Positions 4,815-46,091 of a DNA stretch of 46,091 nt are shown here, piece by piece; within the stretch, counting starts at the first letter, position 1; every line of letters starts with the position of its first letter. Both the position numbers and the translations under genes were made by a program. The DNA comes from Myxococcota bacterium. Its GTDB lineage: Bacteria > Myxococcota > XYA12-FULL-58-9 > JABJBS01. The notes beneath the pieces were generated by a model. The model was not told the origin of the DNA and made no database searches. It saw only the letters and a list, made by a program, of their open reading frames with translations. The stretch covers positions 1-46,091 of the forward strand of contig JAYZAY010000003.1 of the NCBI GenBank assembly GCA_036339465.1, in the 5' to 3' direction.

Positions 4815-5066
4815 GCTCTCCTCCTAGGAGGCTTCATCGACGGATCCACCCAATCCTTAAGTCCAATTCGTTTGCCTTCGATCCTCCTCAGAAATTGTCC
4901 CCAACGCCCGTGCCCTTTGCCCCAGAGCACACCGATTTACCAGAAATGGAATTTACCCCCATGATGTTATAACGAAGTATCAATGCAGCAAAGTTTGAAA
5001 CACGGTCGCCTGAAACCCACGACTCCCAATTCATCAAGGCCGGACTCCAAATAACGGAATGTATCC

Positions 5067-8216: not shown

Positions 8217-8265
8217 GTAGATATCAAGGGATTCGTTTTTCTTCATCAATGAATATTCAAGAGAC

Positions 8266-9231: not shown

Positions 9232-9318
9232 CTGACATCAAAGCCAAGCATACGTCAGTCTCGTTCATGGTAACAAGTTTTCCAGATATTTAAAGGAACT
9301 TGCTTTCTACTCCCACCA

Positions 9319-10530: not shown

Positions 10531-10548
10531 CATTTTGAAAAATATGAT

Positions 10549-11292
10549 TCACCCGCAACCAATTGTTTCAGCGCATCGTTCCCAATTGGCAAAAAAAGTT
10601 TGGGCTTCTTCAAGTGTATCCGGCAAGCCAATGTCGATAAATCTCCCCGAAGAACAAAATCCTTGAACACCCAAAGAAATTCTCTGGGGAAGCACCTCAC
10701 GCTCCATGGAAACCTCACCCTCATTGTGGATGGCTTCCAACACCTCTCGCGCGAAGAGATAAATCCCGGCGTTAATCCAGCCAGGCCCCGCCTTTTCGCC
10801 AGATTTCTCCTCAAAAGCCAAAACTCGGTGACTCTCACTTAACTCAACTCGACCGTAGCGCCCTGTATCATCCACTTTTCGAACCACCATAGAAACCTTA
10901 GCGCCACTCTCCACATGGGCCTTGATGAAGCCATTGAGATCCACCTCGCAAAAGGAGTCACCATTCATCACCAGGACCAAAGGATTAGAAACCGCCGGTA
11001 GAGCATAGCGAACCGCTCCCCCAGTGCCCCGCCTTTCTTTTTCCCGAGAATATTTGATGCGCATCCCGCCATAGGAATTGCCTAGACAATCCTCGATCTG
11101 CTCAGCGAGGTAGCCCGTCGCCAACACCGACTCCGAAACCCAAGCCTTAGACAATTCATCCAACAAATAGGTAATAAACGGGCGCCCACAAACCTCTGCC
11201 AAAACCTTCGGTCGGTCAGAGACAACCGTTCTTAAGCGCGTACCTAAGCCCCCTGCCAATAAAACTGCGGTCAATGATATCTCTTGGGTCAT
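10549..11292 (-). CDS. hddC: Sugar-1-phosphate guanylyltransferase, HddC-like (D-glycero-alpha-D-manno-heptose 1-phosphate guanylyltransferase)
   Basis: LLAGGLGTRLRTVVSDRPKVLA, GTGGA, VMNGDS, INAGIY, FIDIGLP. The start is placed at ATG 11292, just after the stop of the upstream gene. Confidence 0.75.
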   Translation of the reverse strand: MTQEISLTAVLLAGGLGTRLRTVVSDRPKVLAEVCGRPFITYLLDELSKAWVSESVLATGYLAEQIEDCLGNSYGGMRIKYSREKERRGTGGAVRYALPAVSNPLVLVMNGDSFCEVDLNGFIKAHVESGAKVSMVVRKVDDTGRYGRVELSESHRVLAFEEKSGEKAGPGWINAGIYLFAREVLEAIHNEGEVSMEREVLPQRISLGVQGFCSSGRFIDIGLPDTLEEAQTFFANWERCAETIGCG

Positions 11293-11296
11293 GGGA

Positions 11297-12235
11297 TTAG
11301 GCGTTCTTAAACTGAGCGCGCCCCAACATTGAGTAGCCCTTGAGCAACTCCTCAATACCCACACCAATGCTACGCTTGGCTTCAAAGCCGGCTTCACGTA
11401 AGCGCTGATTTGAGACGATGTAATTTCGTTTGTCGGGATCTTCGCCTATTTCCCCATAGTGAATGTAGAAATTAGGAACAAACTTCTTCACTTCCTCGGC
11501 GAGTTCCGCCTTAGAGAGATTCGCATCATCCAGTCCCACATTGTAGGGCCGGCCCTTCATGGCATCAAAATTCTCGATGGAGTGCATAAAACAATCCGCA
11601 ATGTCTCTAATATGGATATAATTCCGTTTAAAATCCTGCTCAAAAAGCACGATATAACCGTCAGTCAAAGCGGCATAAACAAAATGATTCACCAAAAGGT
11701 CAAGACGCATTTTCGGACTCATCCCAAAAACGGTCGCCAATCTTAAAGTCACCACATTGGGAGAATCCAAGAGAATTCTCTCCGCCTCCACTTTGGTTTG
11801 GCCATAAAGAGTGATCGGTTCTAAGGGAGTATCTTCGGTGCAATAAACTTCGCCAGATTTTGTTCCGTATCCGCTGTTGGTAATGGGCATCAAAACCTGC
11901 TGGCTGGAACTGCGCAACCGGTTGAGCATCTGAACCGAATCAACATTGATGGCCTTGGTCGCCGCCCGGTCCTTCTCACAGGCCTTGGCCCCCACAATAG
12001 CCGCTAAGGGAATGATATGATCCACATCTCGAAGTGCTTCCACCATCACCCGTTCGTCACGGACATCACCGCAGGTGAACTCAAATTCAGGGCGATGACA
12101 CAAGTGAAAAAGGGTATGTTGATTAAACATCAGGTTATCCACTGCCCGGACCCGATAGCCCTTCGCCAACAACTCTTCACAAATCACAGAACCGAGATAA
12201 CCCGCCGCGCCTGTCACCAACACTCGTTCACTCAT
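11297..12235 (-). CDS. NAD-dependent epimerase/dehydrogenase resembling C. jejuni Cj1427 (GDP-heptose C4-dehydrogenase)
   Basis: GAAGYLG, IIPLAAIVGA, PITNSGYG, YGQTK, RLATVFGMSPKMRLDLLVN, FKRNYIHIRD and IGEDPDKRNY match the Cj1427 family sequence as I recall it. Confidence 0.75.
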   Translation of the reverse strand: MSERVLVTGAAGYLGSVICEELLAKGYRVRAVDNLMFNQHTLFHLCHRPEFEFTCGDVRDERVMVEALRDVDHIIPLAAIVGAKACEKDRAATKAINVDSVQMLNRLRSSSQQVLMPITNSGYGTKSGEVYCTEDTPLEPITLYGQTKVEAERILLDSPNVVTLRLATVFGMSPKMRLDLLVNHFVYAALTDGYIVLFEQDFKRNYIHIRDIADCFMHSIENFDAMKGRPYNVGLDDANLSKAELAEEVKKFVPNFYIHYGEIGEDPDKRNYIVSNQRLREAGFEAKRSIGVGIEELLKGYSMLGRAQFKNA

Positions 12236-12350
12236 ATTTAGTCTCCATGGTCTATTTGCCTACATCGACGGATCTCCGAGAGGCTTAACCCTTATTTCTT
12301 AAGTCCTACCAAAATCAAATTCATGGCCACAAACTTAAAAACCTATGTAA

Positions 12351-13340
12351 TTACGATAACTTCATCCCCAATTGAAGTTCATACTCCATCTCTGGAACCT
12401 CCCCAATAAGTGGCTCGTCCCCAATGAACCGGAGGGCCTCTTGGGTGGCCTCAATTTCCATTCGGGTCCGGCAATCCACCGACATGGAACCCATATGAGC
12501 GGTCATGAGGCAATTTTGAAGCTCGCTTAAGGGCCCCGAATACGGTTCCTGCTCAAAAACATCCATGGCCGCGCCCCCAATTTTATTCTGGGTCAGGGCT
12601 TGATGCAGGTCGGCTTCATGGATGATTCCTCCCCGAGACGTGTTGAGCAAAAGCGCATCCGATTTCATCGCCTCCAACTCGGCCAGGCTTATCAAATCAC
12701 GGGTATTTGGAGTTAAAGGCACATGCAGGCTGATGAGATCCGCACGGTCATAGATGGTTTCTTTTTCCACCCACTCAATGGGCAACCCCTCTCCAAGCTT
12801 CAAATTTGGCTGAATATCGTTGCAGAGTATTTTGGGACAATCAAAACCCCTCAGGTGCTCGAGCACCCTCGAACCTACACGGCCCAAACCGATCAACCCC
12901 ACCGTCACTTCTCCCAACCGTCGACCAAAATGGCGATGCCAAATCTTCTGATGCAAATCGGCGTTCGATAGATGAATCCCCCTAAGAAGGCTTAGCATGA
13001 GCCCCACAGAGAGTTCCGCCACCGCTGCAGCTGGCGCGTCTGGCGTATAGGAGACCCGCATTCCCAAACGGCGTGCAGCGGTCAAATCCACGCTGTCGAG
13101 CCCGATTCCAACCCTCGATATAAATTTAAGGCGTTTGGCCCGCTCTAAGACCCGCTCCGTGATTGGCTCAGTGCCCGCAATGAGAACGTCGAATTCGGGA
13201 ATCAGTTCGATTAATTCCTCTTCCGTGAGTTTTTTATTCAGGGGATTGATCACATATTCCAGCCCCCGCTCCTTCATCTGCTCTAAAGGAGTTGGATCTC
13301 GCGTGCCAAAGGGAACCGTGGTCACCAATATCCGAGTCAT
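12351..13340 (-). CDS. D-isomer-specific 2-hydroxyacid dehydrogenase (SerA-like, no ACT domain)
   Basis: SRVGIGLDSVD, GLIGLGRVG, ISLHVPLT, LNTSRG, DVFEQEP, TAHMGS. Confidence 0.85.
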   Translation of the reverse strand: MTRILVTTVPFGTRDPTPLEQMKERGLEYVINPLNKKLTEEELIELIPEFDVLIAGTEPITERVLERAKRLKFISRVGIGLDSVDLTAARRLGMRVSYTPDAPAAAVAELSVGLMLSLLRGIHLSNADLHQKIWHRHFGRRLGEVTVGLIGLGRVGSRVLEHLRGFDCPKILCNDIQPNLKLGEGLPIEWVEKETIYDRADLISLHVPLTPNTRDLISLAELEAMKSDALLLNTSRGGIIHEADLHQALTQNKIGGAAMDVFEQEPYSGPLSELQNCLMTAHMGSMSVDCRTRMEIEATQEALRFIGDEPLIGEVPEMEYELQLGMKLS

Positions 13341-13468
13341 AAACGCCCTCCTAAGATAACCGAGATGCTAAATCGTTATCAATTTTCGTCAATTTAATCA
13401 CACAATCAGGACCCAAGATTTCAGAGAATCGGGCCTCATTCCATGAAAAACATTTAAATCTGGTCACC

Positions 13469-15151
13469 ATGGATCTAGAGTGGTTGAAGATGACAACCAA
13501 AAAACCCGACCTCATGCCAAAAGTGAAAAACCTCCAGAGCGCGGCCATGGAAGCTTTTGGAAAAACCCAATATCGCGAATGCATCAGCCATCTCCAAGAA
13601 GCCCTTAAATTGGCGCCCAAACACCAAGAGACCTACTACAATCTCGGTGTGGCTCTCATGGCCATCAACGAGCAGCAGCCAGCGATTACCTGCTTCAAGC
13701 AAGCCATCAAACTCAACGCCCGTGACGCCGACGCATTCAACAATTTGGGTTTGGTCTATATCGCTCAGGGAAAAGTAACTGAAGCATCCAAAGCTTTTCA
13801 AAGTGCGATCGATATAAACCCAACTCTGCTCGAAGCCCACGGAAATCTGGGCAATGCCCTACGAACCCGAGGCTTACTTGAAGAATCCTGGAATTGCTTT
13901 CAACATGCCCTTCACATGGCACCCAAAAATGCAGACATCCATAAAACCCTACTCTTAACCTTGATGTACATGCCAGGCCAAACCAATCAAATGGTCTTTG
14001 AGCAGGTGTGCCGATTTCAGGATTCACACGAAACAATGCTGGGTGTCCGCCCGCCAATGCGCCAAACCTCAAATAAAAAACTTCGTATCGGTTATGTTTC
14101 GTCTGATTTTAAAAACCACCCCGTGGGAATCAACCTGGCTCCGCTCATCGAACATCACAACCACCAAGATTTTGAGATTTTTCTCTACGGCGAAGTTCCC
14201 AATCACGATGTATTCACCCAAAACTTTCAAACTTGGGCCGACCATTGGCGCAGCACCGTAAACAAAACCGATGCAGAAGTCGCGGCGCAAATAAAACACG
14301 ACCAAATCGACATTCTCATTTTTCTCGCCGGGATTCTCGATAACAATCGCCTTCTACTCGCCAACCAACGTGCTGCGCCCATACAAGTCAGCTACCACAA
14401 CCTCACCTCCACGGGGCTAAAGAGTATCGACTATTGGCTCACCGACTCCTACCTTCATCCCGAGAACAAGAGCGAATCGTTTACAGAAAGCCTGCTTCAT
14501 CTCCCCCAATTCTATGTCTATCCAGCCATGAATCAAAGTCCTGAAATCACTCCAACGCCAGCCCTCAAACAAGGGCACATCACCTTTGGTTCTTTCAACA
14601 ATCCCGCCAAACTCAATCACCAAGTCTTAGAACTTTGGGCCGCGTTATTACTGGCCACGAAAAACTCCAAACTCCTCTTAAAGTACGCCGGGGTATTTCA
14701 ATCCGCAGACAATCGAAATCGATTTCTGGAAAAATTTGCATCTTTCGGAGTCGACAAAGACCGAATCCTATTTCAATCTCAAAAAGAGCCACAGATAGAC
14801 CATCTTGCCCGGTATGGCCAGGTGGATATCGCCCTCGACCCCTTTCCCTTCAATGGTGCCACCACCACCTTTGAGGCTTTGTGGATGGGCGTGCCTGTGG
14901 TCACGCTAAAGGGCCACAATTTCCGTTCCCGAGCCGCCGGATCTATCCTACACATCCTCGGACTAGACCATTGGATTGCAGAGAGCGCCGAGCAATACAT
15001 AGCGATTGCCAAAAAAATGAGCTCAGATTTCCGTGCGCTTAATCAGCTTCGCCAAGGATTACGACCGCGAATGATAAAATCCAGATTGTGCGATGGCGCA
15101 ACCTACGCCAAACACCTAGAAAGCATTCTGAAAATCATCGTCACCTCGTAA
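13469..15151 (+). CDS. TPR-containing GT41 (O-GlcNAc transferase/SPINDLY-like) protein glycosyltransferase
   Basis: N-terminal TPRs (YYNLGVAL, FNNLGLVY, HGNLGNAL), then LRIGYVSSDFKNHPVG, RAAPIQVS, TFGSFNNPAKL and DIALDPFPFNGATTTFEALWMGVPVVTL. Confidence 0.9.
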   Translation: MDLEWLKMTTKKPDLMPKVKNLQSAAMEAFGKTQYRECISHLQEALKLAPKHQETYYNLGVALMAINEQQPAITCFKQAIKLNARDADAFNNLGLVYIAQGKVTEASKAFQSAIDINPTLLEAHGNLGNALRTRGLLEESWNCFQHALHMAPKNADIHKTLLLTLMYMPGQTNQMVFEQVCRFQDSHETMLGVRPPMRQTSNKKLRIGYVSSDFKNHPVGINLAPLIEHHNHQDFEIFLYGEVPNHDVFTQNFQTWADHWRSTVNKTDAEVAAQIKHDQIDILIFLAGILDNNRLLLANQRAAPIQVSYHNLTSTGLKSIDYWLTDSYLHPENKSESFTESLLHLPQFYVYPAMNQSPEITPTPALKQGHITFGSFNNPAKLNHQVLELWAALLLATKNSKLLLKYAGVFQSADNRNRFLEKFASFGVDKDRILFQSQKEPQIDHLARYGQVDIALDPFPFNGATTTFEALWMGVPVVTLKGHNFRSRAAGSILHILGLDHWIAESAEQYIAIAKKMSSDFRALNQLRQGLRPRMIKSRLCDGATYAKHLESILKIIVTS

Positions 15152-15175
15152 CCTCGATACATTGATCCCAACCTT

Positions 15176-15217
15176 GACTTCTAGGCATAGACTTCTAGGC
15201 ATAGACTTCTAGGCATA
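15176..15217. repeat. Tandem repeat (GACTTCTAGGCATA)x3 between convergent genes
   Basis: Three exact 14-bp copies at 15176, 15190 and 15204. Confidence 0.9.
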
Positions 15218-15230
15218 CCTTCTGTGCAAC

Positions 15231-15773
15231 TCATTCAAAAGTCGCCACATAATTCCCATACCTATGCTGGCGAGCATCCCAATCCGCCCTCAAAAGCTCC
15301 ATCCAAACTATCTCATGAGAAACACCATTTTTTACCATCTGCCGCTTCTTCATTTCCACCTCTCGGTATCCATGAATCTCGTGCATGCGAATAACATTGA
15401 TGTTTTCAGAAAAGACTGGGCCTTCAATTTTTTCTAGGTCAGACGCCCGCTCATAAAAGAGGTAATTGTAAAGACAGGGAGGCACAAAACCACCCAAGCG
15501 GCTATATTTGAGTTCGCCAATATACCATCCCCAAGAAGTCGTCTTCAGATCGGGATTGTAATCCGCAAGATTCACGACACCTATGGGCTGGCTGGCATAT
15601 TCAATCACCCAAGACATCGTCTCAGGCAACGCCACAATCCGCCTCAGCCAAGCCTCCTGCTTCTCTAAATCATACTCGACATCTGTCAATAGATACCGAT
15701 TAATTTCCGGTTGCACCCGCCAATCCATCGTAAGTTTGGCATCCGACAAACGTATTTTTCTAAACGCAAACAA
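15231..15773 (-). CDS. pseH: PseH-like GNAT N-acetyltransferase
   Basis: WRVQPEINRY...QEAWL...WGWYIG...VFSENINVIRMHEIHGY; located next to pseG and pseI. Confidence 0.7.
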   Translation of the reverse strand: MFAFRKIRLSDAKLTMDWRVQPEINRYLLTDVEYDLEKQEAWLRRIVALPETMSWVIEYASQPIGVVNLADYNPDLKTTSWGWYIGELKYSRLGGFVPPCLYNYLFYERASDLEKIEGPVFSENINVIRMHEIHGYREVEMKKRQMVKNGVSHEIVWMELLRADWDARQHRYGNYVATFE

Positions 15774-15990
15774 TGCTTACAATCCTAATTTGAACTTCTA
15801 TAAAAATATTTCACCAGAGTGGCTCGTTTTCAAAATAACTGGGCTTCAAAACATAGCGCCCAGCTTCCTAAAGTAACATTAAATATCCCAATAAGTTGAT
15901 TTCCTAAAGAATTTGTACCCAACTTATCACAAACCCGGTGGGCTCGAGAGATCTCGCCACCGCAGAAGTCACTTATGAGACAGGACGTCA

Positions 15991-17028
15991 TTGAGTATGG
16001 TAAACGTGGCGGTGAGAACCGATGCCAACACGAAGATCGGGACTGGCCACTTCATGCGGTGCTTAACCCTGGCCAATGCGCTTCAGCGGGGCGGAGCAGA
16101 GTGCGAATTCCTATGCCTGAGCGTCCCTCCTCCCCTACAACACCAAGCCGAAACCTACGGTCATCAAGTAACCCTGCTTAAAAGCGAAGCAGAGGTGCTG
16201 AAGCATCTCGCCTCCAAAAAAAATCACTGGCTGCTGGTCGACCACTACGACTTAGAGCTCCACTTTGAACAACAAGCTCGCCCCTTCACCCAAGCCCTGC
16301 TGGTCATTGAAGACCTCCAAGGGCGCCACCACGCCTGCACCCACCTTCTAGACGCATCTCCTCTCAGAGTTCCGGAGGATTTATCGGCGTTTATTCCCAC
16401 CACGTGCACCCTCTTTCTCGGCCCCCAATACGCATTGCTGCGGCCTGAATTTCTAGCGCATCGCAGACCCCACAGAGCCCGCTGGCAACGAGGCTTTATT
16501 TCCTTGGGCGGAGCTGACCCCAACAATCAATGCCTGGCTCTTTTAAACTTCATTCATCATTCTAAACACCTAAGAAAGTTTCAATGGACTTTAGTCGCCG
16601 GACCTGCAAACCCCCACCTCAAAAGCCTGAAGCACTTTGCCAGCACCTGCGACTTCAAGCTCACCCTGCTCCCATCCTCCAATCAAATCGCAGCCCTGAT
16701 GGCCGAACACGATTTCGCCATCGGTGCAGGAGGGGGCATGACCCTAGAGCGCGCCTGTATCGGGCTCCCCACACTCGCCATCGCCATCGCAGACAACCAA
16801 GAGCCCAGCATCCAAATGCTCCGGCAATTTGACCTCGCCGAAACCCTCGAACTCAAGGACCTAAATACCCAAAATATTGAAGAAAGCTTAAACCGCCTCC
16901 AAAAAAACTCATCCCTCTATTTTCAACGAAACCAAAACTTCGTCGATGGATTAGGAGCCCAGAGAATCGCCAAAGCCATGCTCGGGCTCAAAGACGCTCC
17001 ACCGGAGCAAAAGGTGACGCCATGCTGA
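15991..17028 (+). CDS. pseG: UDP-2,4-diacetamido-2,4,6-trideoxy-beta-L-altropyranose hydrolase
   Basis: RTDANTKIGTGHFMRCLTLA, LLVDHY, GPQYALLRPEF, GGADP, AIGAGG.TLER...GLP, ADNQ. Confidence 0.9.
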   Translation: MSMVNVAVRTDANTKIGTGHFMRCLTLANALQRGGAECEFLCLSVPPPLQHQAETYGHQVTLLKSEAEVLKHLASKKNHWLLVDHYDLELHFEQQARPFTQALLVIEDLQGRHHACTHLLDASPLRVPEDLSAFIPTTCTLFLGPQYALLRPEFLAHRRPHRARWQRGFISLGGADPNNQCLALLNFIHHSKHLRKFQWTLVAGPANPHLKSLKHFASTCDFKLTLLPSSNQIAALMAEHDFAIGAGGGMTLERACIGLPTLAIAIADNQEPSIQMLRQFDLAETLELKDLNTQNIEESLNRLQKNSSLYFQRNQNFVDGLGAQRIAKAMLGLKDAPPEQKVTPC

Positions 17029-18065
17029 TTGGAAACCAAAACGTAGGACAAGGCCATCCGCCGTTTATCGTGGCAGAAATGTCGGGCAATCATAATCAAT
17101 CCCTCGACCGAGCCCTGGCCATCGTGGATGCCGCGGCCCAAGCAGGTGCCCACGCCATCAAGCTCCAAACCTATACCGCCGACACCATCACCCTCGATGT
17201 CCAGGATAAAGAGTTCTACATCTCAGCCCCCAAGAGTCTGTGGAAAGGCCAATCCCTGCACGAGCTCTACCAAAAGGCCTATACCCCTTGGGAATGGCAC
17301 CGCCCCATCATAAAACGGGCCCAAGAAAAAGGTCTCTTGTGCTTCAGCTCTCCCTTTGACCACAGCGCCGTGGATTTCCTCGAAGCGCTCGGTGTACCCG
17401 CCTATAAAATCGCCTCATTTGAAAACACCGACCTCCCCTTGATTCGCAAAGTCGCCAGCACCGGTAAGCCCATCATCATTTCCACTGGCATGGCTTCCAT
17501 TGCCGAGCTCGGCGAAACCGTCGCCTGCGTACGAAATGCAGGATGCGAAGATCTCATCCTACTAAAATGTACCAGCACCTACCCAGCCAGCCCAGAAAAC
17601 ACCAACATCTCCACCATTCCCCACATGCGCGACCTTTTCCAATGCGAAGTCGGACTCTCAGATCATACCATGGGTGTGGGCGTTTCGGTGGCATCAGTCG
17701 CACTTGGAGCCACGGTCATCGAAAAACATTTCACCCTCAGCCGTGAAGATGGAGGAGTCGACAGCACCTTCTCCCTTGAACCCCATGAGCTTCAAAGTCT
17801 CGTGATAGAATCAAAACGGGCCTGGCAAGCGCTCGGCACCATCACCTATGGAGCGACCCAGGCCGAACAAAGCTCACACAAAAATCGGCGTTCCCTCTAC
17901 ATCGCGAAGGATATGCAACCCGGAGACATTCTAACCCCGGAAAACCTACGATGCGTGCGGCCTGGCCTCGGCCTCCCACCCAAGTACTATGACATTTGCT
18001 TAGGGCGTAAAGTCAAACAAGCCGCCCCAAAAGGTACCGCTATGACCTGGGAACTTATCGCTTAA
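17022..18065 (+). CDS. pseI: Pseudaminic acid synthase
   Basis: IVAEMSGNHNQS, KLQTYTADT, YTPWEWH, KIASFE, GLSDHT, IEKHFT and a C-terminal SAF domain; overlaps the end of pseG. Confidence 0.93.
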   Translation: MLIGNQNVGQGHPPFIVAEMSGNHNQSLDRALAIVDAAAQAGAHAIKLQTYTADTITLDVQDKEFYISAPKSLWKGQSLHELYQKAYTPWEWHRPIIKRAQEKGLLCFSSPFDHSAVDFLEALGVPAYKIASFENTDLPLIRKVASTGKPIIISTGMASIAELGETVACVRNAGCEDLILLKCTSTYPASPENTNISTIPHMRDLFQCEVGLSDHTMGVGVSVASVALGATVIEKHFTLSREDGGVDSTFSLEPHELQSLVIESKRAWQALGTITYGATQAEQSSHKNRRSLYIAKDMQPGDILTPENLRCVRPGLGLPPKYYDICLGRKVKQAAPKGTAMTWELIA

Positions 18066-29031: not shown

Positions 29032-30903
29032 AGATCACTTAAGAACATCACGCGCCACAATTCAACAGACCTGCCCCCGAAAACAATGAAGCCGTGCGAG
29101 CCCGCTCTCTGTGACATGTAAAACACATTGCTTAGACGCTGTTTCAAAATAAAAACTATAACGCCCCCCGAAATCACGGCTACTCGCGGTGGTTGATAAG
29201 CAGCATGGCCCACGCCTTTAGCGCGTGCTGAGACTGCAAACCACCGGCAAACAAGACATACACCCACCGTAGAGTAAGCCTCCTAAGCGAATTCAACTGT
29301 TAGTGGAGAGTTAATACTCCATAAAGAGTTCAGTGTCCTCTCCAAGCCGGAGAAACACTCAAATCCACCTCCGAAATGATGGCCGCATTTCAGTGCGCTT
29401 GCCGGGGACACTCAAATACCAGGTAATCGAAATACCTTGAACGCTTAAGAAACGAACCCGATGTAACAACGGTCTAATCATCCAGGTCTAATCATCCAGA
29501 GTCATTTAATTCTCGCGAATCAGCGTGAATCAGTCTCACATTACCAAACTTTCCTCGACCTCATTCACCGAATTAACCCATCCTCGGTGGCCAGTCGATC
29601 CCCACCGCCTTCTACTATGAACACCGTCCACTAAACACTTCACCCTGGACACGAACAAACCGATCCATAACCCGATCTCAAAAGATCGTCACCCATACTC
29701 AAAGTGGATTTACTTCAATATCGGAGGTTTAGTTTCGGAGAAGTCCCAGAAAGACCCAAATGCCTTAGTATCTTCCGAATCAGCGCCCCTGAATGATAAA
29801 CACCGCGTTGGTCATGCGGCCCTTGCATTTGGATCGCTTGAAAACGTCAGTTTCAAATACCCGCGCATTAACCGGTGCCAAGCCACGCGCTTTTGGCTGC
29901 AACGCCTGGCGCACTCCCTCCCCTCCCCTCCCCTCCTTTAAATTTGAATCCTTTCGCGACCACAAATTTATGAATCTCTTTTTTCAAGACTGGTGCCGGG
30001 TGTGGCCACCTCCTCCTTACGAAAGGAGCCCATTTTAACGCAGCAGACGCTACACACACTGGCTGTTTGAATGGCCTGGAGACTAAGTCGAATTCAGTCC
30101 TTGGGATGCCTTTCTACGCTGAACTGAATACTGGCTAGGTCCTCACAGTTTTTGGCGACCAAAAGCCTTATACAACCACGGCATTTTTGGTACATCCTTG
30201 GCCAAGAGTGTCGGAGCACCTTGCGAACCCCTACGGTAACTTTGGCTAATATCAAAACAAGCCGTCAAGGGCTTCTCCCTTTAAAGGTCGCCAGACCAAT
30301 CCAATTTTTCTTTTAGTAGAGGAGCCACCGCCCTCCTTTCTTGATTTCATAATATATTTGGTTTGGGCTTTTCCCAAGCACTGCCCCGCCGTAGCGACAC
30401 CAGTTAGGTAACCATAGAAATCGTGTGGTGGAACTATATTATCAAAGCGCTAGGTTCAGAACCGCGATTGCTCGTCAACATCCTTGCCCCCTACACCGGC
30501 ATGAAAAAAATAGATGATGTCACTTCATCGCCAAACTTCACAGTGGATCCGTATGATTTTAGGACTTACGTATTAGGGGAAATAAGATCTAGATAATAAG
30601 ATAGTCTTTGGCTGTCCAAGCCGGAAAAACGCGAAAGCTGTTTAAGAAATCCCAAAAACAAAAAGCCTTCAAAGCTACTTTAGGTGTCGATATCAACACA
30701 GCCACGGAGAAAGATCATTAAAATACGCCGATAACCAGCGATTATCCCTAAACTTAAATAAGTTCACTGCTAACATAGGCTGGATGTTTTCTTGCTAAAG
30801 ATAAGCGGTAAACATACAGTTAGGGTAAGTAGGCCAGATGGCCGCTTAACCTATCTGTTTTAGCTTTGCGTGAAGCTCGAACGGAAAAAAGCCGGAGGGT
30901 AGT

Positions 30904-31959
30904 ATGTCTTACACTGCGACTAAGATTGTCCAGATATTTGGAAACACAAGCCATAAAAACACTTTACTGCAAGCTGAAGGTAAAATCATCCCGGCTGCCA
31001 CCCGAGAGAGGCGCGGAAAAGTTAGCGCAAGAGTGTGGCAAGTCCAAGACCTGCCAAAAATAGGTAAGCACTACGGCTGGCTGCCAAATAACCTAGAAGA
31101 GCCGGTGGCACTCTCGGTTTTTTCATCCAAAGGGGGCTCCTACAAAACAACCCTGGCAACGACGCTCGCGAGGTCCGCCGCCCTTAACGCTATCCCCACT
31201 TGCCTCGTGGGACTAGATTACCAAATGGATGCCACAAGATTCTTCGGCTTCGACTCACAAATTGAAGACAATAATGAGGACCTAGACCTCGAAGATCTAA
31301 GCACGCAACTTGTTGAATTTAAGGGACTTCATGACTTCTACTCAAGCCCCACAAAGACATCCCTAAGCGACATCATTCAGCCCGTAGATGATTTCGGAGG
31401 AATGCTCTCAATCGTGCCTGAGTCTTCCAAGCTAAGTAGCCTAGACATGCAGCTTGCCTCACAAACCCTTCGGGAATTTTGGCTTAGAGATAACATCATC
31501 AACCCGCTTAAGGAACGATTCAAACTCATCATTATTGACTGCAGCCCAAGCTGGAACTTACTCACTGCAAATGCCCTTGCTGCGAGTGATCTAATGGTCT
31601 CACCGCTAGAATGCCAAATTAACCATTGGCGCGGATTTACTGACTTTCAAACATACATAACGAACTTCAGGGCCAAAATAGGGCTAAACTACCCCGTGGT
31701 CTACGTTCCAACTAAGCTCGACACGCGCCGGAAAATAAGCAGCCAGATCCACCGCTGGTACCTAAATGAAATCGGGCCTGCCTGCACCACCACAGCCATC
31801 AAAAATTCAAGTAAAATCGAGGAAGCGGCGGCCAGCGGTCTCTCAATTTTCGAGCACGCTCCCCTAGCCCCGGCCTCGACCATGTTTCGAGATTTAACCC
31901 TCGAAATCTGGAATTATCTCCCTGCTCAAAACCCCGGCAAGCAACGACGAGATAACTAG
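30904..31959 (+). CDS. parA: ParA-family partition ATPase with an N-terminal extension (type Ia-like)
   Basis: Deviant Walker A SKGGSYKTT, A' motif GLDYQMDAT, Walker B IIIDCSPS, NALAASD; about 65-aa N-terminal HTH-like extension; GGAGG RBS. Confidence 0.9.
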   Translation: MSYTATKIVQIFGNTSHKNTLLQAEGKIIPAATRERRGKVSARVWQVQDLPKIGKHYGWLPNNLEEPVALSVFSSKGGSYKTTLATTLARSAALNAIPTCLVGLDYQMDATRFFGFDSQIEDNNEDLDLEDLSTQLVEFKGLHDFYSSPTKTSLSDIIQPVDDFGGMLSIVPESSKLSSLDMQLASQTLREFWLRDNIINPLKERFKLIIIDCSPSWNLLTANALAASDLMVSPLECQINHWRGFTDFQTYITNFRAKIGLNYPVVYVPTKLDTRRKISSQIHRWYLNEIGPACTTTAIKNSSKIEEAAASGLSIFEHAPLAPASTMFRDLTLEIWNYLPAQNPGKQRRDN

Positions 31960-31961
31960 TA

Positions 31962-34900
31962 ATGGTAAAAGCGTTAGGGTTACTCGAGGCCGATCGGCGG
32001 CGTCGGAAAAGGACCCCAAAACAACACGAGCGGTCTGTGTCCTCGGGAGATCCGCTCGCGCCGGTTAAAACCAACATAACCCAACTATCGCCCCCTGGTA
32101 GCTCAAACGCAGCACCAGCCCTCGGCGAGTATCCAAGCGAGGATCAGTTAAGAACGGATTCTCAAACTGCTCCTCATGAGGGCCGGGCTTCGGTCGGGCA
32201 AAATGCCAGTTACCTCGGCTCCCAGCCTAAACCGGACCTCATAAGTGAGGAGCGGCTACAGCCAGAAGCCCAAACTGATCCTGAAGAAAAGCAGACGGAC
32301 GGTCACCTAATTAAGAGTGGTCTCCAATCTGGACCTAAACTGATCCTAAAAGCTAAGGATCAGTTTAGCGATGAAATGCAAACTGATCCCCCGAAAACAA
32401 CAAGCGTGCATGGCTCAACCGCTAAACCGGTCCTCACGAATGAGGATCAGTTATCAGAAACGAACTTAACCGCTCCTCAGCACACAAGTAGCTCTCCGTC
32501 AGCGGTGGTTAAACCGATCCTGCCAGATGAGGTACAGTTAACAAAATTGCGCCAAACCGATCCCGGCACAACCGATGGCTTGATTACAACAATGGCTAAA
32601 CTGCACCTCCCAGACGAGGCTCAGTTTAGCGCACCACCCCAAACCGATCCTCGAAGTTCCAAAAGCCTTGTCCAGCCGAACGTTAAACCGATCCTACGCC
32701 ATGAGGCTCACTTAAGCACGCCTATGCTAACTGATCCTCCGCAAATGGACGAGAATGTCGGGGCATCCGCTAAACCGTACCTCGAAAATGAGGACCACTT
32801 AAGAGCCCTAGGCAAAACTGTTCCTGGCAATCTTCAGACCAACGCGCAGCAACCAAACGAGACGCCTCCTAAGACCCCTAAACCGGCCCTCAAAAAGGGG
32901 GTACAGTTAAGTTCACAACCCCAAACCGATCCTGAGGGGATCCAAAACAACCCCGGAATCCAGGATATTCCCGTGGTCACGGCTAAACCGCTCCTCAGGG
33001 ATGAGGATCAGTTAAGTGCCCAAACCGAAACCAGCCAGGCTCAACAGCCAATTGATACTCATGAGCGCGCCAGCGCCCAGCATTCACAAGCTAAACCGGT
33101 CCTCGTAAATGAGGATCAGTTAAGTCCCCACACCGAAGCAAGCCAGGCTCAACAGCCAATTGATACTCATGAGCGCGCCGCCGGCCAGCATTCACAAGCT
33201 AAACCGGTCCTCAGGCATGAGGATCAGTTAAGTCCCCGAACCGAACCTTGCCGGGCTCAACAGCCAATTGATACTCATGAGCGCGCCGCCGGCCAGCATT
33301 CACAATCTAAACCGGTCCTCAGAAATGAGGATCAGTTAACCCACCACACCGAAACCAGCCAGGCTCAACAGCCAATTGATACCAATGAGCTCGCCGCCGG
33401 CCAGCAAGCACAATCTAAACCGGTCCTCAGAGATGAGGATCAGTTAACCCACCACACCGAAACCAGCCAGGCTCAACAGCCAATTGATACCAATGAGCTC
33501 GCCGCCGGCCAGCAAGCACACCCCAAACCGATACCCTCATCTGAGAATGTCCCGCAAACCCAAAATTGGTCCCTGCCCAAGCAAGGCCCATCGCATCCTC
33601 AGCAAACGCATACTGATACCGAACCAAAAGCTAAACCGATCTACAAAGTTCAGGATCGGTTAAGTCAACAGCTCGAAACTGATCCTATCCTTAACCAAAG
33701 CGATCCCCGCGCCACTCAAAGCGATCCCCGCGCAATCACTAAAGTGAACCTCCACCATGAGGATCACTTAGTAGGGCAACACCCAACCGATCCTCAGCAA
33801 GCAGGATCACTTAGCAGGGCCCCAGGATCACTTAGAGCCAACCCAGGATCACTTATCCAAACAGATCCTCACATCACCACCAAACCGATCCCGACACACC
33901 AGGATCACTTAGATAAGCCCACTTTAACCGAACCTCAGCCAAGAGGATCCGTTAATGAAGCCCCAGGATCACTTAACTTGAAAGAGGGATCAGTTAACCT
34001 AACCGCTCCCCAAACCACCCCTAAACTGATCTCCACACACCGAGATCAGTTAACATCATCCCCATCCTTCACGCCCTCTCCCACAGCCACTAAACCCATC
34101 CTTCCTAAAGGCGACCTAAAGCAACTAATCCTCCGTTTTCTTGCCGAGGAAGCCATAAAAGACCAAACCAATACCACGCGCTTTATTCGATACAGTGAAA
34201 TCGCAAATGCAGTCACTACCACGGAGAACTACGCCCGAAAGGCCGTCAAGCTCTTAGTGCTCACGGGGCATTGTCGTAAAATACAAGAAAAGCGCGGCCG
34301 CCAGGGTCCAAATCGCGGGGTTCAATATAGCGTGCCTGAGGCCATCATACGCTTAAGTCTAGCCTCACCTAAACCGGTCCTCAATCCCGCTCTAAACCGG
34401 TCCTCAGTAAAAGAGAAAGACAATTCCACCGCCGCTAAACCGATCCTCGTAACCGATCCTGCTACCGTAGTAGTTAGTAGTAGTAATATATTAACAACAA
34501 CTACTAACTTAGAACTCGAAGATTTTTTACATAAACACGGACCTGCCTGCGATGAATTTGGAATTGGTGCTCAAGATTTAATTTCTATTCTAAAACTTGG
34601 CACCCACACCAATCTCGAATCGATCTTAGAATCTAGCGAACACCTCTTGTTTTATTTGCAGTCACAACACAGCGACGGCATCACCAAACCAAAAGCTTGG
34701 TTTATGCGCCAACTAAAGTCTGGCTACTATGCACGCCCAGCAGGTTTTGTCGGCTGGGAGGAAAGACAGCTCGATCTCCAGCTTCAGGCCCGACGAGAAA
34801 AGACTGCCAGACTCAAGCAGCTTAAAGAGCAAATTCTTGAGGAAGACTTTCAAATCTGGCTCTCAGAGCAAGCACAGTACGATTTAAAGAGAATCTGCGG

Positions 34901-34973
34901 CGTAATAGAACCCACAGGCAGACTCGGACAAGAAAAGCTCAAAGCGCATTTCGTAGGGCTTAACCGACCGTAA
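31962..34973 (+). CDS. Putative replication initiator / DNA-binding protein: about 700-aa repeat-derived N-terminus, winged-HTH, S/T linker and helical C-terminal domain
   Basis: wHTH-like LILRFLAEE...IRYSEIANAVTTTENYARKAVKLLVLTGHCRK...RGVQYSVP (about 34116-34337); VVVSSSNILTTTTN linker; C-terminal ITKPKAWFMRQLKSGYYARPAGF; starts 2 bp after the parA stop. Confidence 0.6.
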   Translation: MVKALGLLEADRRRRKRTPKQHERSVSSGDPLAPVKTNITQLSPPGSSNAAPALGEYPSEDQLRTDSQTAPHEGRASVGQNASYLGSQPKPDLISEERLQPEAQTDPEEKQTDGHLIKSGLQSGPKLILKAKDQFSDEMQTDPPKTTSVHGSTAKPVLTNEDQLSETNLTAPQHTSSSPSAVVKPILPDEVQLTKLRQTDPGTTDGLITTMAKLHLPDEAQFSAPPQTDPRSSKSLVQPNVKPILRHEAHLSTPMLTDPPQMDENVGASAKPYLENEDHLRALGKTVPGNLQTNAQQPNETPPKTPKPALKKGVQLSSQPQTDPEGIQNNPGIQDIPVVTAKPLLRDEDQLSAQTETSQAQQPIDTHERASAQHSQAKPVLVNEDQLSPHTEASQAQQPIDTHERAAGQHSQAKPVLRHEDQLSPRTEPCRAQQPIDTHERAAGQHSQSKPVLRNEDQLTHHTETSQAQQPIDTNELAAGQQAQSKPVLRDEDQLTHHTETSQAQQPIDTNELAAGQQAHPKPIPSSENVPQTQNWSLPKQGPSHPQQTHTDTEPKAKPIYKVQDRLSQQLETDPILNQSDPRATQSDPRAITKVNLHHEDHLVGQHPTDPQQAGSLSRAPGSLRANPGSLIQTDPHITTKPIPTHQDHLDKPTLTEPQPRGSVNEAPGSLNLKEGSVNLTAPQTTPKLISTHRDQLTSSPSFTPSPTATKPILPKGDLKQLILRFLAEEAIKDQTNTTRFIRYSEIANAVTTTENYARKAVKLLVLTGHCRKIQEKRGRQGPNRGVQYSVPEAIIRLSLASPKPVLNPALNRSSVKEKDNSTAAKPILVTDPATVVVSSSNILTTTTNLELEDFLHKHGPACDEFGIGAQDLISILKLGTHTNLESILESSEHLLFYLQSQHSDGITKPKAWFMRQLKSGYYARPAGFVGWEERQLDLQLQARREKTARLKQLKEQILEEDFQIWLSEQAQYDLKRICGVIEPTGRLGQEKLKAHFVGLNRP
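32139..34460. repeat. Intragenic array of palindromic units CTAAACYGRTCCTC-N6-GAGGATCAGTTAAG plus single half-sites (putative iterons/centromere)
   Basis: Left arms at 32227, 32335, 32422, 32509, 32596, 32683, 32770, 32878, 32983, 33091, 33199, 33307, 33415, 33523 (degenerate), 33631, 33739, 33880 and 34021. Half-sites at 33802/33823/33844, 33943/33964/33985, 34369, 34392 and 34435. Confidence 0.9.
32983..33522 (+). repeat. Five near-identical 108-bp tandem repeats (36 aa each)
   Basis: Units like AKPVLRxEDQLxxxTExSQAQQPIDTxExAAGQxSQ; a recent amplification inside the older array. Confidence 0.95.
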
Positions 34974-36170
34974 GAGGGCAATCAACTTCCCCAATAAACT
35001 CCACGAACCCTTTTTACGAACCACTTTTGTCGAAAGCTCCGTCAACAAACGTCGGTGCAAAAAAAGAAATGCCTAACTGAGTGACGGAGGCTTCTATTTC
35101 CTGTCTCACTTCTCAGACTTTCCATCAACACTGAAGCATCCGTCGTCTTAGAGCTTGTCTCCATCAAAATCGCCGCTAACAAAAAAAGCAGTCGTCCTGT
35201 TATTCTATACTTCTATTCATTTTGCCTTTTTACATATTTTTCTTTCATAGGGATTTACCCTTTTGCACGGTAACACCAACTCCTTGGTTCTAGATAAGGC
35301 GGCCGAGGTTTGGCTTAACGCGCTTGTTGGATTTAATCCGCCGGTGGACAAATGTTTCCTGAGATGACTTCCTACGCTTGATTTTTACTGGCCTGGTAGC
35401 CATCTTTTGCTTTTAAGTCTTTTGATTGCAACAAGACCCGCAAACAACCCCTCTCCTTAGTCTGGGATCGTGGCCAGGTCTGAGTTATTCATGACCAGCA
35501 AAGCAGCTCTTCCTTCGTCTATTTGCTAATCCCGAGTGCGTTTTTTTGAATCGGTTCACTCAAGGGCTACTTTTTTCAGACCCTGTCGTGTTTAGCGACT
35601 GAACCCACGACACCTTCGATTCGAAGTCGCTACGGCATTGGTGAAGACAAAGCGCTCACGCTCTTTCGGCAAACCGAGAAGGGCAGCCTTCTAAGACGCT
35701 CAGGCCGAGCCTCGAAGCCGAAAATATCCGTGGCCTACGGTGCCTACTTTTTGTCTTGGTGTTGAGCTGGGCGGTGAAAAGTTCGGTGGGGAGTGGGTAG
35801 GGGGAGGTTGAGAGCCCGTTTAATCTGATACGGTGTGGTTATTGTTTTGTAAATCGTCGGAAGTGGCTCCTCATTTCTTGCTGTAGGTTCTCCGAGAGCA
35901 GAACTTTGGGGAGTGTCGAGTGTCGCCGGGCCAGTTGCATGTATTGAGTTTTATGCTTCGCCCATTTTGGATCCTCTTGCTGTACCCGCAGGTAAGTTTG
36001 CTGGCTTCATGGGTTTGCTCTCTTGTGCTTGGTTGTGGTTATCAAAACAGTAAAGCTCAACCTTTGCTGATGACCGGTGTAGGCTTGGGTACAGATAACA
36101 ACGTACCGAAAGCCCCATCTTAATATCGCCTCACTATTTGATTTTTTCTCGAGAAAAGCGAAAATGCACC

Positions 36171-45404: not shown

Positions 45405-46091
45405 TCATTCGATTACCATACCAATATTACCACCCCAATCGAGAATCTCATCGGCAAATACGCCAGCAAAAAAAGCGGGGGCGAAGGTGACGGAAGCAAT
45501 GCACATGGCGATCACTCCAGCGGCGCCCAAGAAGGCGCTGGGGAGAATAAAAGTTGCCAATAGGGTGGCCACCGAGGCGACGAAGATCACGCCCATGGCG
45601 CGCTTGAATAAATATCGCCCCCAACTCTGTGGAGGGGGATCATCGGTTTCGGCTACAGGTTCAAGGCTAACCAGGTTTTGCGTGGGGTGGGTGGCGAGGG
45701 CGGCGTTTCGAGCTTTGGCAACCTGTGGGTTTAGCTCTGTTACGAGGGTTTGATTTCGGTAGCCTGTGGTCGCCAATTGGGCCCTTGAGAAAGGGGAGAT
45801 ACCGTTGTTTTGCCGAAAGAGTTTCTCCAGGGTGCTTTGGTTGTAGGTGCGACCGTCAGAGGCCACCACTGGGTGGGTCATCGTGTCGTAGGTGATGGGG
45901 TCTTCGAGGTGTGCGTCTTGGTCGCCTAGGGGGCTGGCAGAGAGGCGGTCGCGCATGTTTTGGTCGGGCCAGATTTTACTTGGGGTGACGGGGCGATTGT
46001 CGGTGGGGAGGTGACCGTGCTCGTTGACATAGGGGTAAATTGCGTCGGCGTTGTAGGTGAGGCCGTTTGGGGCAATGACCGGATCGGTTAA
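45405..46091 (-). CDS. Tandem U-box domain protein with a C-terminal transmembrane hairpin (5' end outside the window)
   Basis: The frame is open to the window edge. LTDPVIAPNGLTYNADAI...LPTDNRPV...IWPDQNMR is followed by LEDPITYDTMTHPVVASDGRTYNQSTL...SPFSRAQL...RNQTL and two hydrophobic helices. Confidence 0.75.
   Translation of the reverse strand, partial: LTDPVIAPNGLTYNADAIYPYVNEHGHLPTDNRPVTPSKIWPDQNMRDRLSASPLGDQDAHLEDPITYDTMTHPVVASDGRTYNQSTLEKLFRQNNGISPFSRAQLATTGYRNQTLVTELNPQVAKARNAALATHPTQNLVSLEPVAETDDPPPQSWGRYLFKRAMGVIFVASVATLLATFILPSAFLGAAGVIAMCIASVTFAPAFFAGVFADEILDWGGNIGMVIE

Follow-up and report, generated by a model that had tools for sequence, protein, structure and literature searches.

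The 46,091-bp contig C3 (JAYZAY010000003.1; analysed whole and called the window below), which belongs to a 4.17-Mb assembly of 102 contigs from a Myxococcota bacterium (92.8% complete), carries a parA gene directly followed by a second open reading frame (ORF), here named ORF2. We established that ORF2 is dual-coded: the same stretch of DNA forms a phased array of sites and encodes a winged-helix protein that has a long disordered tether. The two genes most likely make up a module that maintains a plasmid or chromid of this Myxococcota member. Judged from sequence, the ORF2 protein very probably binds the array within its own gene and probably acts as the centromere-binding partner of ParA, and we lean slightly towards a role as replication initiator; that it is both ParA partner and iteron-type initiator, with the origin inside its own gene, is our leading reading, proposed tentatively. 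The family sits on plasmids of predatory bacteria, to which it probably supplies the centromere and perhaps the replication origin. The feature is real and unusual; it appears to represent a new family and a new variation on the logic of plasmid maintenance, in which we infer the functional roles.

A partition ATPase gene paired with the gene of an apparently undescribed protein

An earlier prediction made from the sequence alone (hereafter, the original prediction) had described a 1003-amino acid ORF 2 bp after parA, which starts with a short basic N-terminus and in which the first ~700 codons are built on a recurring motif and its reverse complement, followed by a winged helix-turn-helix (wHTH), further motif copies, an AT-rich stretch and a helical C-terminal domain. 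It had also placed the pair between about 1.9 kb and 1.2 kb of apparently non-coding DNA and noted that no ParB/CTPase gene lies in the window. All of this was borne out. The ORF coordinates agree (Table 1), and the product reads, from N to C terminus, as a basic peptide, a disordered region of ~700 codons encoded by the site array, a wHTH, a linker and a helical C-terminal domain. Neither flank contains an ORF of at least 100 amino acids, and a scan of the whole window with Rfam returned 0 families. No ParB_N or HTH_ParB domain was found in ORF2 and no ParB_N domain in the window, so the pair lacks the cognate ParB of a type I ParABS system; the only ParB of the assembly is encoded on another contig (C30), in a chromosomal gidB-parA-parB string.

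By its sequence, the parA product can be classed as a type-Ia-like, Walker-type partition ATPase. The deviant Walker A motif KGG..K that marks this type was invariant in an alignment of the protein with 7 relatives, among which an N-terminal extension of ~65 amino acids was also kept. Of the NCBIfam models, ParA_partition matched with 9.3e-17 and RepA and SopA matched weakly, all under their curated cut-offs (for SopA, 32.5 bits vs a cut-off of 725). ORF2 had no Pfam match (E<=0.1), no NCBIfam family and no PDB sequence match, and hence appears to be the gene of an undescribed protein family.

The coding sequence is a phased array of DNA sites

When AAACYGRTCCTC was searched with at most 1 mismatch, 32 matches were found in the window and 32/32 lay within ORF2 (32139-34448), on both strands. 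Shuffled sequences averaged 1.21 such matches, with at most 4, and 0/100 shuffles reached 32. With at most 2 mismatches the window contained 67 matches, 52 of these in ORF2, and the exact 12-mer occurs 9 times in ORF2 and 2 times in the remaining 4.17-Mb assembly. The 52 copies are read by the gene in several ways: in the forward orientation, frame 0 has 22 copies (read as KP[VI]L), frame 1 has 16 (QTDP) and frame 2 a single one, and the other 13 are in reverse orientation (EDQL). An information profile of the copies showed a discrete 14-bp core, CT-AAACYGRTCCTC(A), with flanks of ~0 bits and an inverted partner 18 bp away; copies for this profile were picked by positions 0-11, and positions -2, -1 and the flanks played no part in the picking. 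Part of the array is a 108-bp tandem repeat (Table 1), and one metagenome contig omits 432 nt of it, equal to 4 units (33023->33456), which is either a copy-number variant of the repeat or an assembly collapse.

Synonymous-codon permutation, which leaves both the protein and the codon usage identical, yielded a mean of 4.9 and a maximum of 12 copies in 300 permutations of the C3 gene, against the 32 observed. After removal of the 108-bp tandem block, 22 copies were observed vs a mean of 3.4 and a maximum of 7. The motif counts were above all 300 synonymous permutations in each of 6 genes of the family, and a statistic blind to the motif (the count of the commonest 8-mer) was exceeded in 0/300 permutations of all 6 genes and in 0/200 for two further plasmids. 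The spacing of the sites follows the DNA helix. Direct copies in C3 lie 21/23, 43/44, 65 and 108 bp apart, with a best period of 10.8 bp (R 0.83), and 30% of the distances are multiples of 3. Pooling of the six genes (115 distances, those within one gene not being independent) gave a period of ~10.5-11 bp with Rmax 0.80 vs 0.14 for both nulls (0/2000) and 31% multiples of 3; spacings in the relatives are 11, 22, 33 or 66 bp. A period of 22 bp accounts for the three reading frames, three sites making up one 22-residue peptide repeat. The motif is thus a DNA element under DNA-level selection and not a by-product of peptide repeats: conservation of the repeats only as protein, which the original prediction had named as a possible refutation, is excluded by their occurrence in several frames and on both strands, by their helical spacing and by counts above every synonymous shuffle.

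At the same time, the array is kept open for translation. Over the first 714 codons of the C3 gene there are 0 stops in the gene frame vs 32-64 in each other frame (P of no stop ~4e-12 from base composition), and all 6 genes have 0 stops in the gene frame vs 3-64 in the other five frames. Since the gene frame is open throughout the array, the array is translated as a disordered tether. The N-terminal part has a P/Q/T/S-rich composition and a fraction of hydrophobic residues of 0.18 vs 0.31 in the C-terminal part, and this low hydrophobic content fits the predicted tether. Natural variation was seen in contigs from four marine sequencing runs, which cover the locus patchily, the uncovered parts being uninformative; no RNA run was listed. 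Among the variants listed, 8/8 in the array fall outside motif copies, which make up 26% of the array (P ~0.09), with 2, 3 and 3 of them at codon positions 1, 2 and 3; in the C-terminal domain, 24/29 of the variants listed are at third codon positions. Because P is ~0.09 and the count is of listed variants, with 22 further rows beyond those listed, the sparing of motif copies is a hint only.

Relatives carry their own arrays next to parA

An exhaustive profile-free search with amino acids 700-1003 of the ORF2 protein found 111 proteins at E<=1e-3, 62 of them at E<=1e-10, with lengths of 107-912 amino acids. In these relatives the module is always C-terminal and has no assigned Pfam or NCBIfam family, and the N-terminal extensions are variable; the N-terminal parts contain short, protein-specific peptide repeats that recur between the wHTH and the C-terminal domain. 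All cluster members examined (12/12, from 10 clusters) were metagenomic and either 'hypothetical protein' or unnamed. Of 401 genomes sampled from the phylum, 3 had strong matches and 8 had a match of any strength at E<=1e-3, and searching for loci with the family alignment returned 1 in a genome, 6 in metagenomes and 0 in viruses. A word-indexed search with amino acids 700-1003 found none among proteins of near length and, when run as a stand-alone query of 304 amino acids, a single partial relative, of marine origin; against PLSDB, neither the C-terminal module nor protein P0004 gave a tblastn match. Members on plasmids of Bdellovibrio were reached through ParA and then protein P0114, and hhalign of the protein of one of them (AP029177.1) with the family profile gave 92.5% and E 4.8e-7.

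DNA was thus available for 8 members: ORF2 itself (C3), a paralogue on contig C16 of the same assembly, L014 from a metagenome-assembled genome placed in the same phylum as the C3 genome, L015 and L019 from metagenomes, and three complete circular Bdellovibrio plasmids (AP029177.1, 62 kb; AP029178.1, 48 kb; AP029175.1, 161 kb). As the original prediction had proposed to check, all 7 others carry their own lineage-specific intragenic array. The motifs of these 7/7 further members are CAAYCGGAACCTC (C16), CAACCGGGGACA, AACCGGAGACAAC, ACTCGGGAACAA, AAAACCCGATAAA, TACAACAAACC and GCAAAGTCGGGG; each falls into two to six strand/frame classes and is above all synonymous permutations. Over the 8 members, motif density is 10-15 copies/kb in the gene vs <=0.4/kb outside, except for L015, with one outside copy in a flank of <1 kb. 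On complete plasmids the confinement is evident over the whole replicon, with 22 sites in the gene vs 1 outside (62 kb) and 15 exact sites in the gene vs 0 outside (48 kb).

The gene is also found with parA, which lies directly upstream in 7/8 testable loci (C3, C16, L014, L019 and the three plasmids) with gaps of 0-16 nt; upstream of the L015 gene there is only a 188-amino acid, weakly ParA-like ORF, and other loci are cut off. Only parA and the module gene are common to all loci. L014 and plasmid pBdHAGR1 share a type IV secretion system (T4SS) coupling protein and a protein of the Replic_Relax type, which we take to be a relaxase family. We scanned 49/68 proteins of pBdHAGR1 and 36/48 of pBdHAGR2, leaving out annotated transposases and enzymes, small ORFs and the module, and among these 85 proteins of two complete plasmids found no ParB and no Pfam replication-initiator family. 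The two plasmids are co-resident in one strain, Bdellovibrio sp. HAGR004, and share DNA that is 99% identical and starts 8-50 bp past the module; the shared backbone (AP029177.1 17783-23471; AP029178.1 15566-22869) is 90-99% identical and encodes a KfrA_N protein, toxin-antitoxin pairs of the PemK and Gp49/HI1420 types, a MerR-like protein and an integrase. Their parA and module pairs are unrelated at the DNA level, with different motifs, and unrelated modules beside a shared backbone are how incompatibility determinants should look.

The paralogue in the window's own genome (locus L023) occupies 29414-31720 (-) of C16, has 768 codons and is preceded by its parA at 31737-32858 (-). Its site differs from the C3 site, and GGAACCTC occurs 13 times in three frames. 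The presence of the C3 and C16 modules suggests two separate replicons or two origins in the organism. In L019, positions 1620-1667 just upstream of the conserved part of parA contain two inverted site copies (1620, 1640) and a perfect DnaA box, TTATCCACA (1659), a possible operator or origin-associated element.

Domains of the ORF2 protein and the DNA of its linker

An AlphaFold2 (AF2) model of amino acids 700-1003, made from a 70-sequence alignment, had a predicted local distance difference test score (pLDDT) of 88.5 and contained the winged helix (amino acids 718-801). In a fold search (VIA), this domain matched a CRP-family wHTH with Z 9.8 and a root-mean-square deviation (rmsd) of 2.2 over 74 residues, and CRP, MarR and ArsR domains with Z 9.8-8.2; the top Foldseek rows were MarR/ZitR, pNOB8 AspA and TubR (E 0.015-0.08). 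Among 70 family members, 23/70 match MarR_2 weakly and 8/70 match HTH_36. Within the family, conservation is highest in the C-terminal domain (S.EH.AFYL ... PKAW ... GYY..PAGF ... FE.W).

At the other end of the protein, the basic N-terminus is part of a motif with which many relatives also begin, M-A/P-x-x-L-x-x-L-K/R followed by a basic run and often by R-P-W ~20-40 residues in. A basic-x-W sequence occurs in the first 60 amino acids of 27/60 full-length-like homologues (counted without control). We regard the N-terminal peptide as a candidate ParA-contacting tail.

Between the wHTH and the C-terminal domain, the linker is encoded by a cluster of four direct site copies and an AT-rich element (Table 1). 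A cluster of 2-5 direct copies after the wHTH was found also in C16, L014, L019, L015 and pBdHAGR1. The AT-rich stretch at 34461-34510 has 72-78% AT per 40 bp, and its GTTAGTAGTAGT is unique in the 4.17-Mb genome. The peptide encoded by the element (VVSSS..TTTT) is kept across the family, and so is the DNA: in the VSS(S)(S) block, AGT encodes Ser in 22/22 cases over 7 loci, the proteins of which are only ~30% identical, whereas the same genes elsewhere use 11% AGT. A relative's contig (two marine runs) is ~91% identical to the window over 34466-34825 (31 differences/360 nt) and unlike it upstream, so that its similarity breaks at the AT-rich element; an exchange of the array and wHTH block against the conserved C-terminal domain at this element would fit.

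Comparison with known systems

In phage lambda, the origin lies in the O gene, where the protein segment specified by four iterons and an AT-rich region flexibly connects the DNA-binding and recruiting domains of O; in contrast, ORF2 has ~50 sites, and parA is present, while lambda has no ParA. The repABC operons of Alphaproteobacteria combine a partition ATPase and an initiator in one operon, with the origin within the initiator gene. They consist of three genes and have a true ParB (RepB) and a separate parS, whereas there is no ParB here and one protein seems to cover the roles of both RepB and RepC. The F plasmid SopABC system has a ParA with an N-terminal extension, a SopB of the ParB family, and a non-coding sopC of 12 x 43 bp downstream of sopB. 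The 43/44-bp spacing in the C3 array is like the ~43-bp spacing of sopC, but the C3 array is coding. McdB, the carboxysome ParA partner, was considered and dropped, as the genome has no photosystem II and ORF2 has a DNA-binding domain and a site array.

Like TubR and pNOB8 AspA, the ORF2 protein has a wHTH fold (4rs8 E 0.020, 5k5q E 0.065, 6tey E 0.081); these E-values are weak, and MarR and CRP proteins score the same or better. Unlike it, TubR and AspA have ~80-100 amino acids and work with TubZ or with ParB and ParA. In RepA_N of pSK41, an N-terminal winged helix binds repeated boxes located centrally inside the rep gene, the origin-encoded segment is a dispensable linker, and the C-terminal domain contacts host replication proteins (PMC5703833). 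The wHTH of ORF2, its linker encoded by four sites and AT-rich DNA, and its helical C-terminal domain are like this arrangement. In contrast to RepA_N proteins, which belong to theta plasmids of Firmicutes, ORF2 has no sequence match to RepA_N (PF06970) or Bac_RepA_C, the latter being a weak language-model lead only, and it differs in the ~700-codon array ahead of the wHTH, the coupling to parA and the Myxococcota and Bdellovibrionota hosts. The ParA-ParT-parS system of Streptomyces SCP2 has a ParA partner, ParT, that is not a CTPase, bears an N-terminal ParA-activating peptide and has parS in its own gene; ParT is a clamp resembling ParB, and its parS is a single 18-bp site (PMC12260392). Compared by description, ORF2 differs from ParT in its winged helix, its dozens of phased sites in all frames and its possible origin. 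The CyRepX cyanobacterial Reps (Slr6031, Slr6090), likewise compared by description, were dropped as candidates since they are described as helicase-like, with DEXDc/HELICc domains (PMC10899382), and ORF2 has no such domain. A described equivalent of multi-frame, helically phased intragenic arrays was not found in searches of an open-access library.

Partition, replication or both

We propose that the winged helix would bind the copies of its candidate site, CTAAACCGGTCCTC, in its own gene and that the large 5' array would be the centromere. The basic N-terminal tails of many bound dimers would be presented to nucleoid-bound ParA-ATP to drive segregation, in place of ParB and parS. The linker site cluster and the conserved AT-rich element may form an iteron-type origin opened by the same protein, whose helical C-terminal domain might dimerise and/or recruit parts of the host replisome, as pSK41 RepA_N or lambda O. 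Motif and winged helix would change together between lineages to give compatible replicons, incompatibility specificity being rewritten by concerted change of array and recognition helix, possibly through a swap of the array and wHTH at the AT-rich element. Such repABC-like logic in one polypeptide, in which one wHTH reads both a translated centromere and a small intragenic origin and parA with the gene is a self-contained cassette, is put forward with caution. The role of centromere adaptor is probable, the protein being ParA's only linked partner; that of initiator is plausible because of the linker anatomy, the G-C skew, the lack of any other recognisable Rep and the behaviour of the co-resident plasmids.

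The minimum of the cumulative G-C skew lies inside the gene in C16 (at 29512) and in L014 (at 4784, gene 3735-5228). On pBdHAGR2 it lies at 16499, ~1 kb past the gene (maximum 37095), and on pBdHAGR1 at 11271, on a plateau that reaches the gene, the skew being positive from 17 kb (maximum 44880). In the window, GC skew is uniformly and strongly negative (-0.1 to -0.26) over positions 1-35000 whatever the direction of the genes, up to the 3' end of ORF2; the cumulative skew flattens from 35 kb and has its minimum at 41129. The skew supports an origin near the gene without proving it.

Several observations weigh against the proposal that the module replicates and segregates an extrachromosomal element. 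The skew is confounded by the A+C-rich coding strand of the gene, and par loci are often near origins, which weighs against reading it as the mark of an origin in the gene. DnaA boxes are not enriched near the modules. The C3 ends have no terminal overlap, C3 and C16 have genome-like G+C, and their cargo is chromosome-like. On both Bdellovibrio plasmids scanned, several unassigned proteins could be the actual Rep. A loose form of the N-terminal pattern fits 34/60 full-length-like homologues, a count made with no control pattern. A hairpin formed by GTTAGTAGTAGT with its partner was significant in loci L015 and L018 (z -3.5, -5.8) and not in C3 or L014 (z -0.6); we therefore dropped a 'conserved hairpin' and kept a 'conserved AT-rich DNA element'. 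The C-terminal domain has no PDB fold counterpart (Foldseek best E 3.3; VIA best Z 5.5, rmsd 2.2, 59 aligned), and across the 70 family members MarR-type models are matched more often than HTH_36, DnaD_N or Phage_rep_O.

To these is added that no homology of ORF2 to any Rep family was detected in Pfam, NCBIfam or a PDB profile search, which returned generic wHTH regulators only. No Rep_3 match was obtained for ORF2, and its single predicted winged helix is at odds with the two wHTH domains of Rep_3/RepE/pi-type proteins. Of the 78 families matched by at least one of the 70 members, the 25 that were listed did not include RepA_N (PF06970), and Phage_rep_O (PF04492) gave 0 matches for ORF2 and weak ones, below significance, for 2/70 relatives (best E 0.026). 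Language-model neighbours of the whole module were HTH_36 clusters (0.96); for the C-terminal domain the leads, which speak for an initiator, were the C-terminal domains of plasmid Reps L_lactis_RepB_C (0.85), Bac_RepA_C (0.83) and Rep3_C (0.82, 24% of one cluster), all below trust level, and RP-C was a minor label (19% of members) of one cluster. The computational checks put forward in the original prediction all turned out in its favour, but its 'Rep-like' replicon is retained in part: the label stands because of the architecture, the GC skew and the absence of any other recognisable Rep, and lacks detectable homology to a Rep family.

The protein could instead be a centromere-binding protein only, a ParB substitute for which all intragenic sites, those of the linker included, are one centromere located where disorder of the protein can be tolerated, with replication left to another gene or to host factors. 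We consider this unlikely, although parA synteny in 7/8 loci and the conserved N-terminal tail fit it, the large phased array resembles centromere arrays such as F sopC, and Foldseek ranks AspA and TubR, both centromere-binding wHTH proteins, near the top. The missing homology to any Rep and the unassigned plasmid ORFs also favour it, as does the precedent of SCP2 ParT, which takes the place of ParB without being a CTPase and carries parS within its own gene (PMC12260392). What it leaves unexplained is the synonymous conservation of the AT-rich element (AGT 22/22), the skew minima in or beside the gene, and a conserved, well-folded C-terminal domain of 155 amino acids that is larger than dimerisation needs; moreover, no Pfam Rep family was found on the two complete plasmids.

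Conversely, the protein could be an iteron-type initiator only, with the linker sites and AT-rich DNA as origin, the 5' array used for copy-number titration or handcuffing, and ParA using another adaptor or acting directly. P1 incA is such a copy-number control array. This reading seems to us distinctly improbable. The architecture parallels that of lambda O, the 22-bp spacing in L014 and pBdHAGR1 is classical for iterons, skew minima lie near the gene, and co-resident replicons have distinct motifs; the parallel extends to RepA_N (PMC5703833). On the other hand, there is no other adaptor gene between or after parA and the module (gaps 0-16 nt), a conserved basic N-terminal tail on a long tether is a trait of ParA partners, and 20-50 control iterons would be unusually many.

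Still less probable is a role outside replication and segregation, in which a DNA-binding regulator or a protein of nucleoid type would coat its own locus for autoregulation, silencing or exclusion, with parA serving another positioning task. The likeness of the wHTH to MarR/CRP-type regulators, the chromosome-like cargo on C3 and C16, and the two sites ahead of parA in L019, which fit autoregulation, speak for it. It is opposed by the presence of the family on three complete circular plasmids and, in L014, near T4SS coupling-protein and relaxase-like genes, by the single module per replicon with specificity that differs in co-resident replicons, and by sites essentially restricted to the gene. 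Finally, the idea that ordinary peptide repeats left a DNA footprint, or that the 5' 2 kb is untranslated and the ORF accidental, has the young 108-bp tandem block and the P/Q/T/S-rich composition in its favour and a very small residual probability, the ordinary-repeat reading being largely refuted by the same 12-mer read as KPVL, QTDP and reversed EDQL with 30% of spacings multiples of 3, by an excess that survives removal of the tandem block (22 vs a maximum of 7) with a conserved core and flanks of ~0 bits, and by 8 members that behave alike each with a different motif, and the untranslated version being opposed by 0 stops in one frame only (6/6 genes), a start that abuts the parA stop and conserved N-terminal motifs.

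Implications of a translated site array

The pair of parA and ORF2 introduces an undescribed protein family and an apparent means of coupling ParA to DNA without ParB, in which the cis sites lie in the reading frame of the partner. It is also a clear natural case of dual coding, a disordered protein segment shaped by DNA-level selection; if the reading of the module as both centromere and origin is true, a natural protein region is dictated by DNA-binding sites and not by protein function. Should the linker be the origin, parA and the gene would be a compact replicon, useful for Myxococcota and Bdellovibrio, in which native plasmids and shuttle vectors are scarce, and would then be the first minimal replicon type native to Myxococcota and Bdellovibrionota. 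The lineage-specific motifs would presumably offer a set of compatible replicons and a system in which to follow the co-evolution of DNA-binding specificity and sites. Plasmids were known in only two myxobacterial hosts, according to one report (PMC11705834).

Features of the locus and of the rest of the contig

The coordinates of the module and its flanks are collected in Table 1.

Table 1. Features of the parA-ORF2 locus in the window
Feature	Position	Strand	Details
Upstream ORF-poor flank, presumed promoter/regulatory region	29032..30903		1.9 kb
parA	30904..31959	+	351 aa; Pfam AAA_31 E 2.6e-24, CbiA 2.9e-08
ORF2	31962..34973	+	1003 codons; starts 2 nt past parA end
N-terminal peptide MVKALGLLEADRRRRKRTPK, candidate ParA-contacting tail	31962..32021	+	begins MVKALGLLEADRRRRKR; similar N-termini in relatives
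Main array	32139..34133		~48 direct and inverted copies of the helically phased 14-bp site CT-AAACYGRTCCTC
108-bp tandem repeat within array	32982..33514	+	x4.9 (36-aa units), one inverted site pair per unit; Tandem Repeats Finder score 807, 90% matches
wHTH, aa 718-801	34113..34364	+	AF2 pLDDT >90; H-H-H-strand-strand-H
Linker cluster of four direct site copies	34371..34461	+	34371, 34394, 34437, 34450; within low-pLDDT linker
AT-rich element GTAGTAGTTAGTAGTAGT..ACTACTAAC, candidate unwinding or host-factor site	34467..34508		conserved at DNA level
C-terminal all-helical domain, aa 846-1001	34497..34964	+	five-helix bundle and long helical hairpin; AF2 alone pLDDT 96.8, predicted template modelling score 0.74
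Downstream ORF-poor flank	34974..36137		1.2 kb

In the upstream flank there are three matches to the motif, all with 2 mismatches (29574, 29657 and 29724, clustered at 29574-29735), as well as a 14-bp direct duplication at 29471-29499 (GGTCTAATCATCCA x2.1) and a (CCCTC)x4.2 repeat at 29916-29936. The most AT-rich 40-mers of the region, with up to 80% AT, lie in the downstream flank at 35181-35240. Elsewhere on the contig that carries the module, positions 5067-18065 hold a surface-sugar cluster, a cargo resembling that for nonulosonic-acid-like glycans. Its genes encode a 1049-amino acid protein with glycosyltransferase family 1 (GT1) and tetratricopeptide repeat (TPR) domains, two epimerases/dehydratases, a DegT aminotransferase, a nucleotidyltransferase, a GT41 and TPR protein, a GNAT protein and a NeuB-type synthase. 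Near the end of the contig, an ORF at 45405-45956 (-) contains a U-box domain of eukaryote type (PF04564, E 7e-8), and a longer form of it reaches the contig end.

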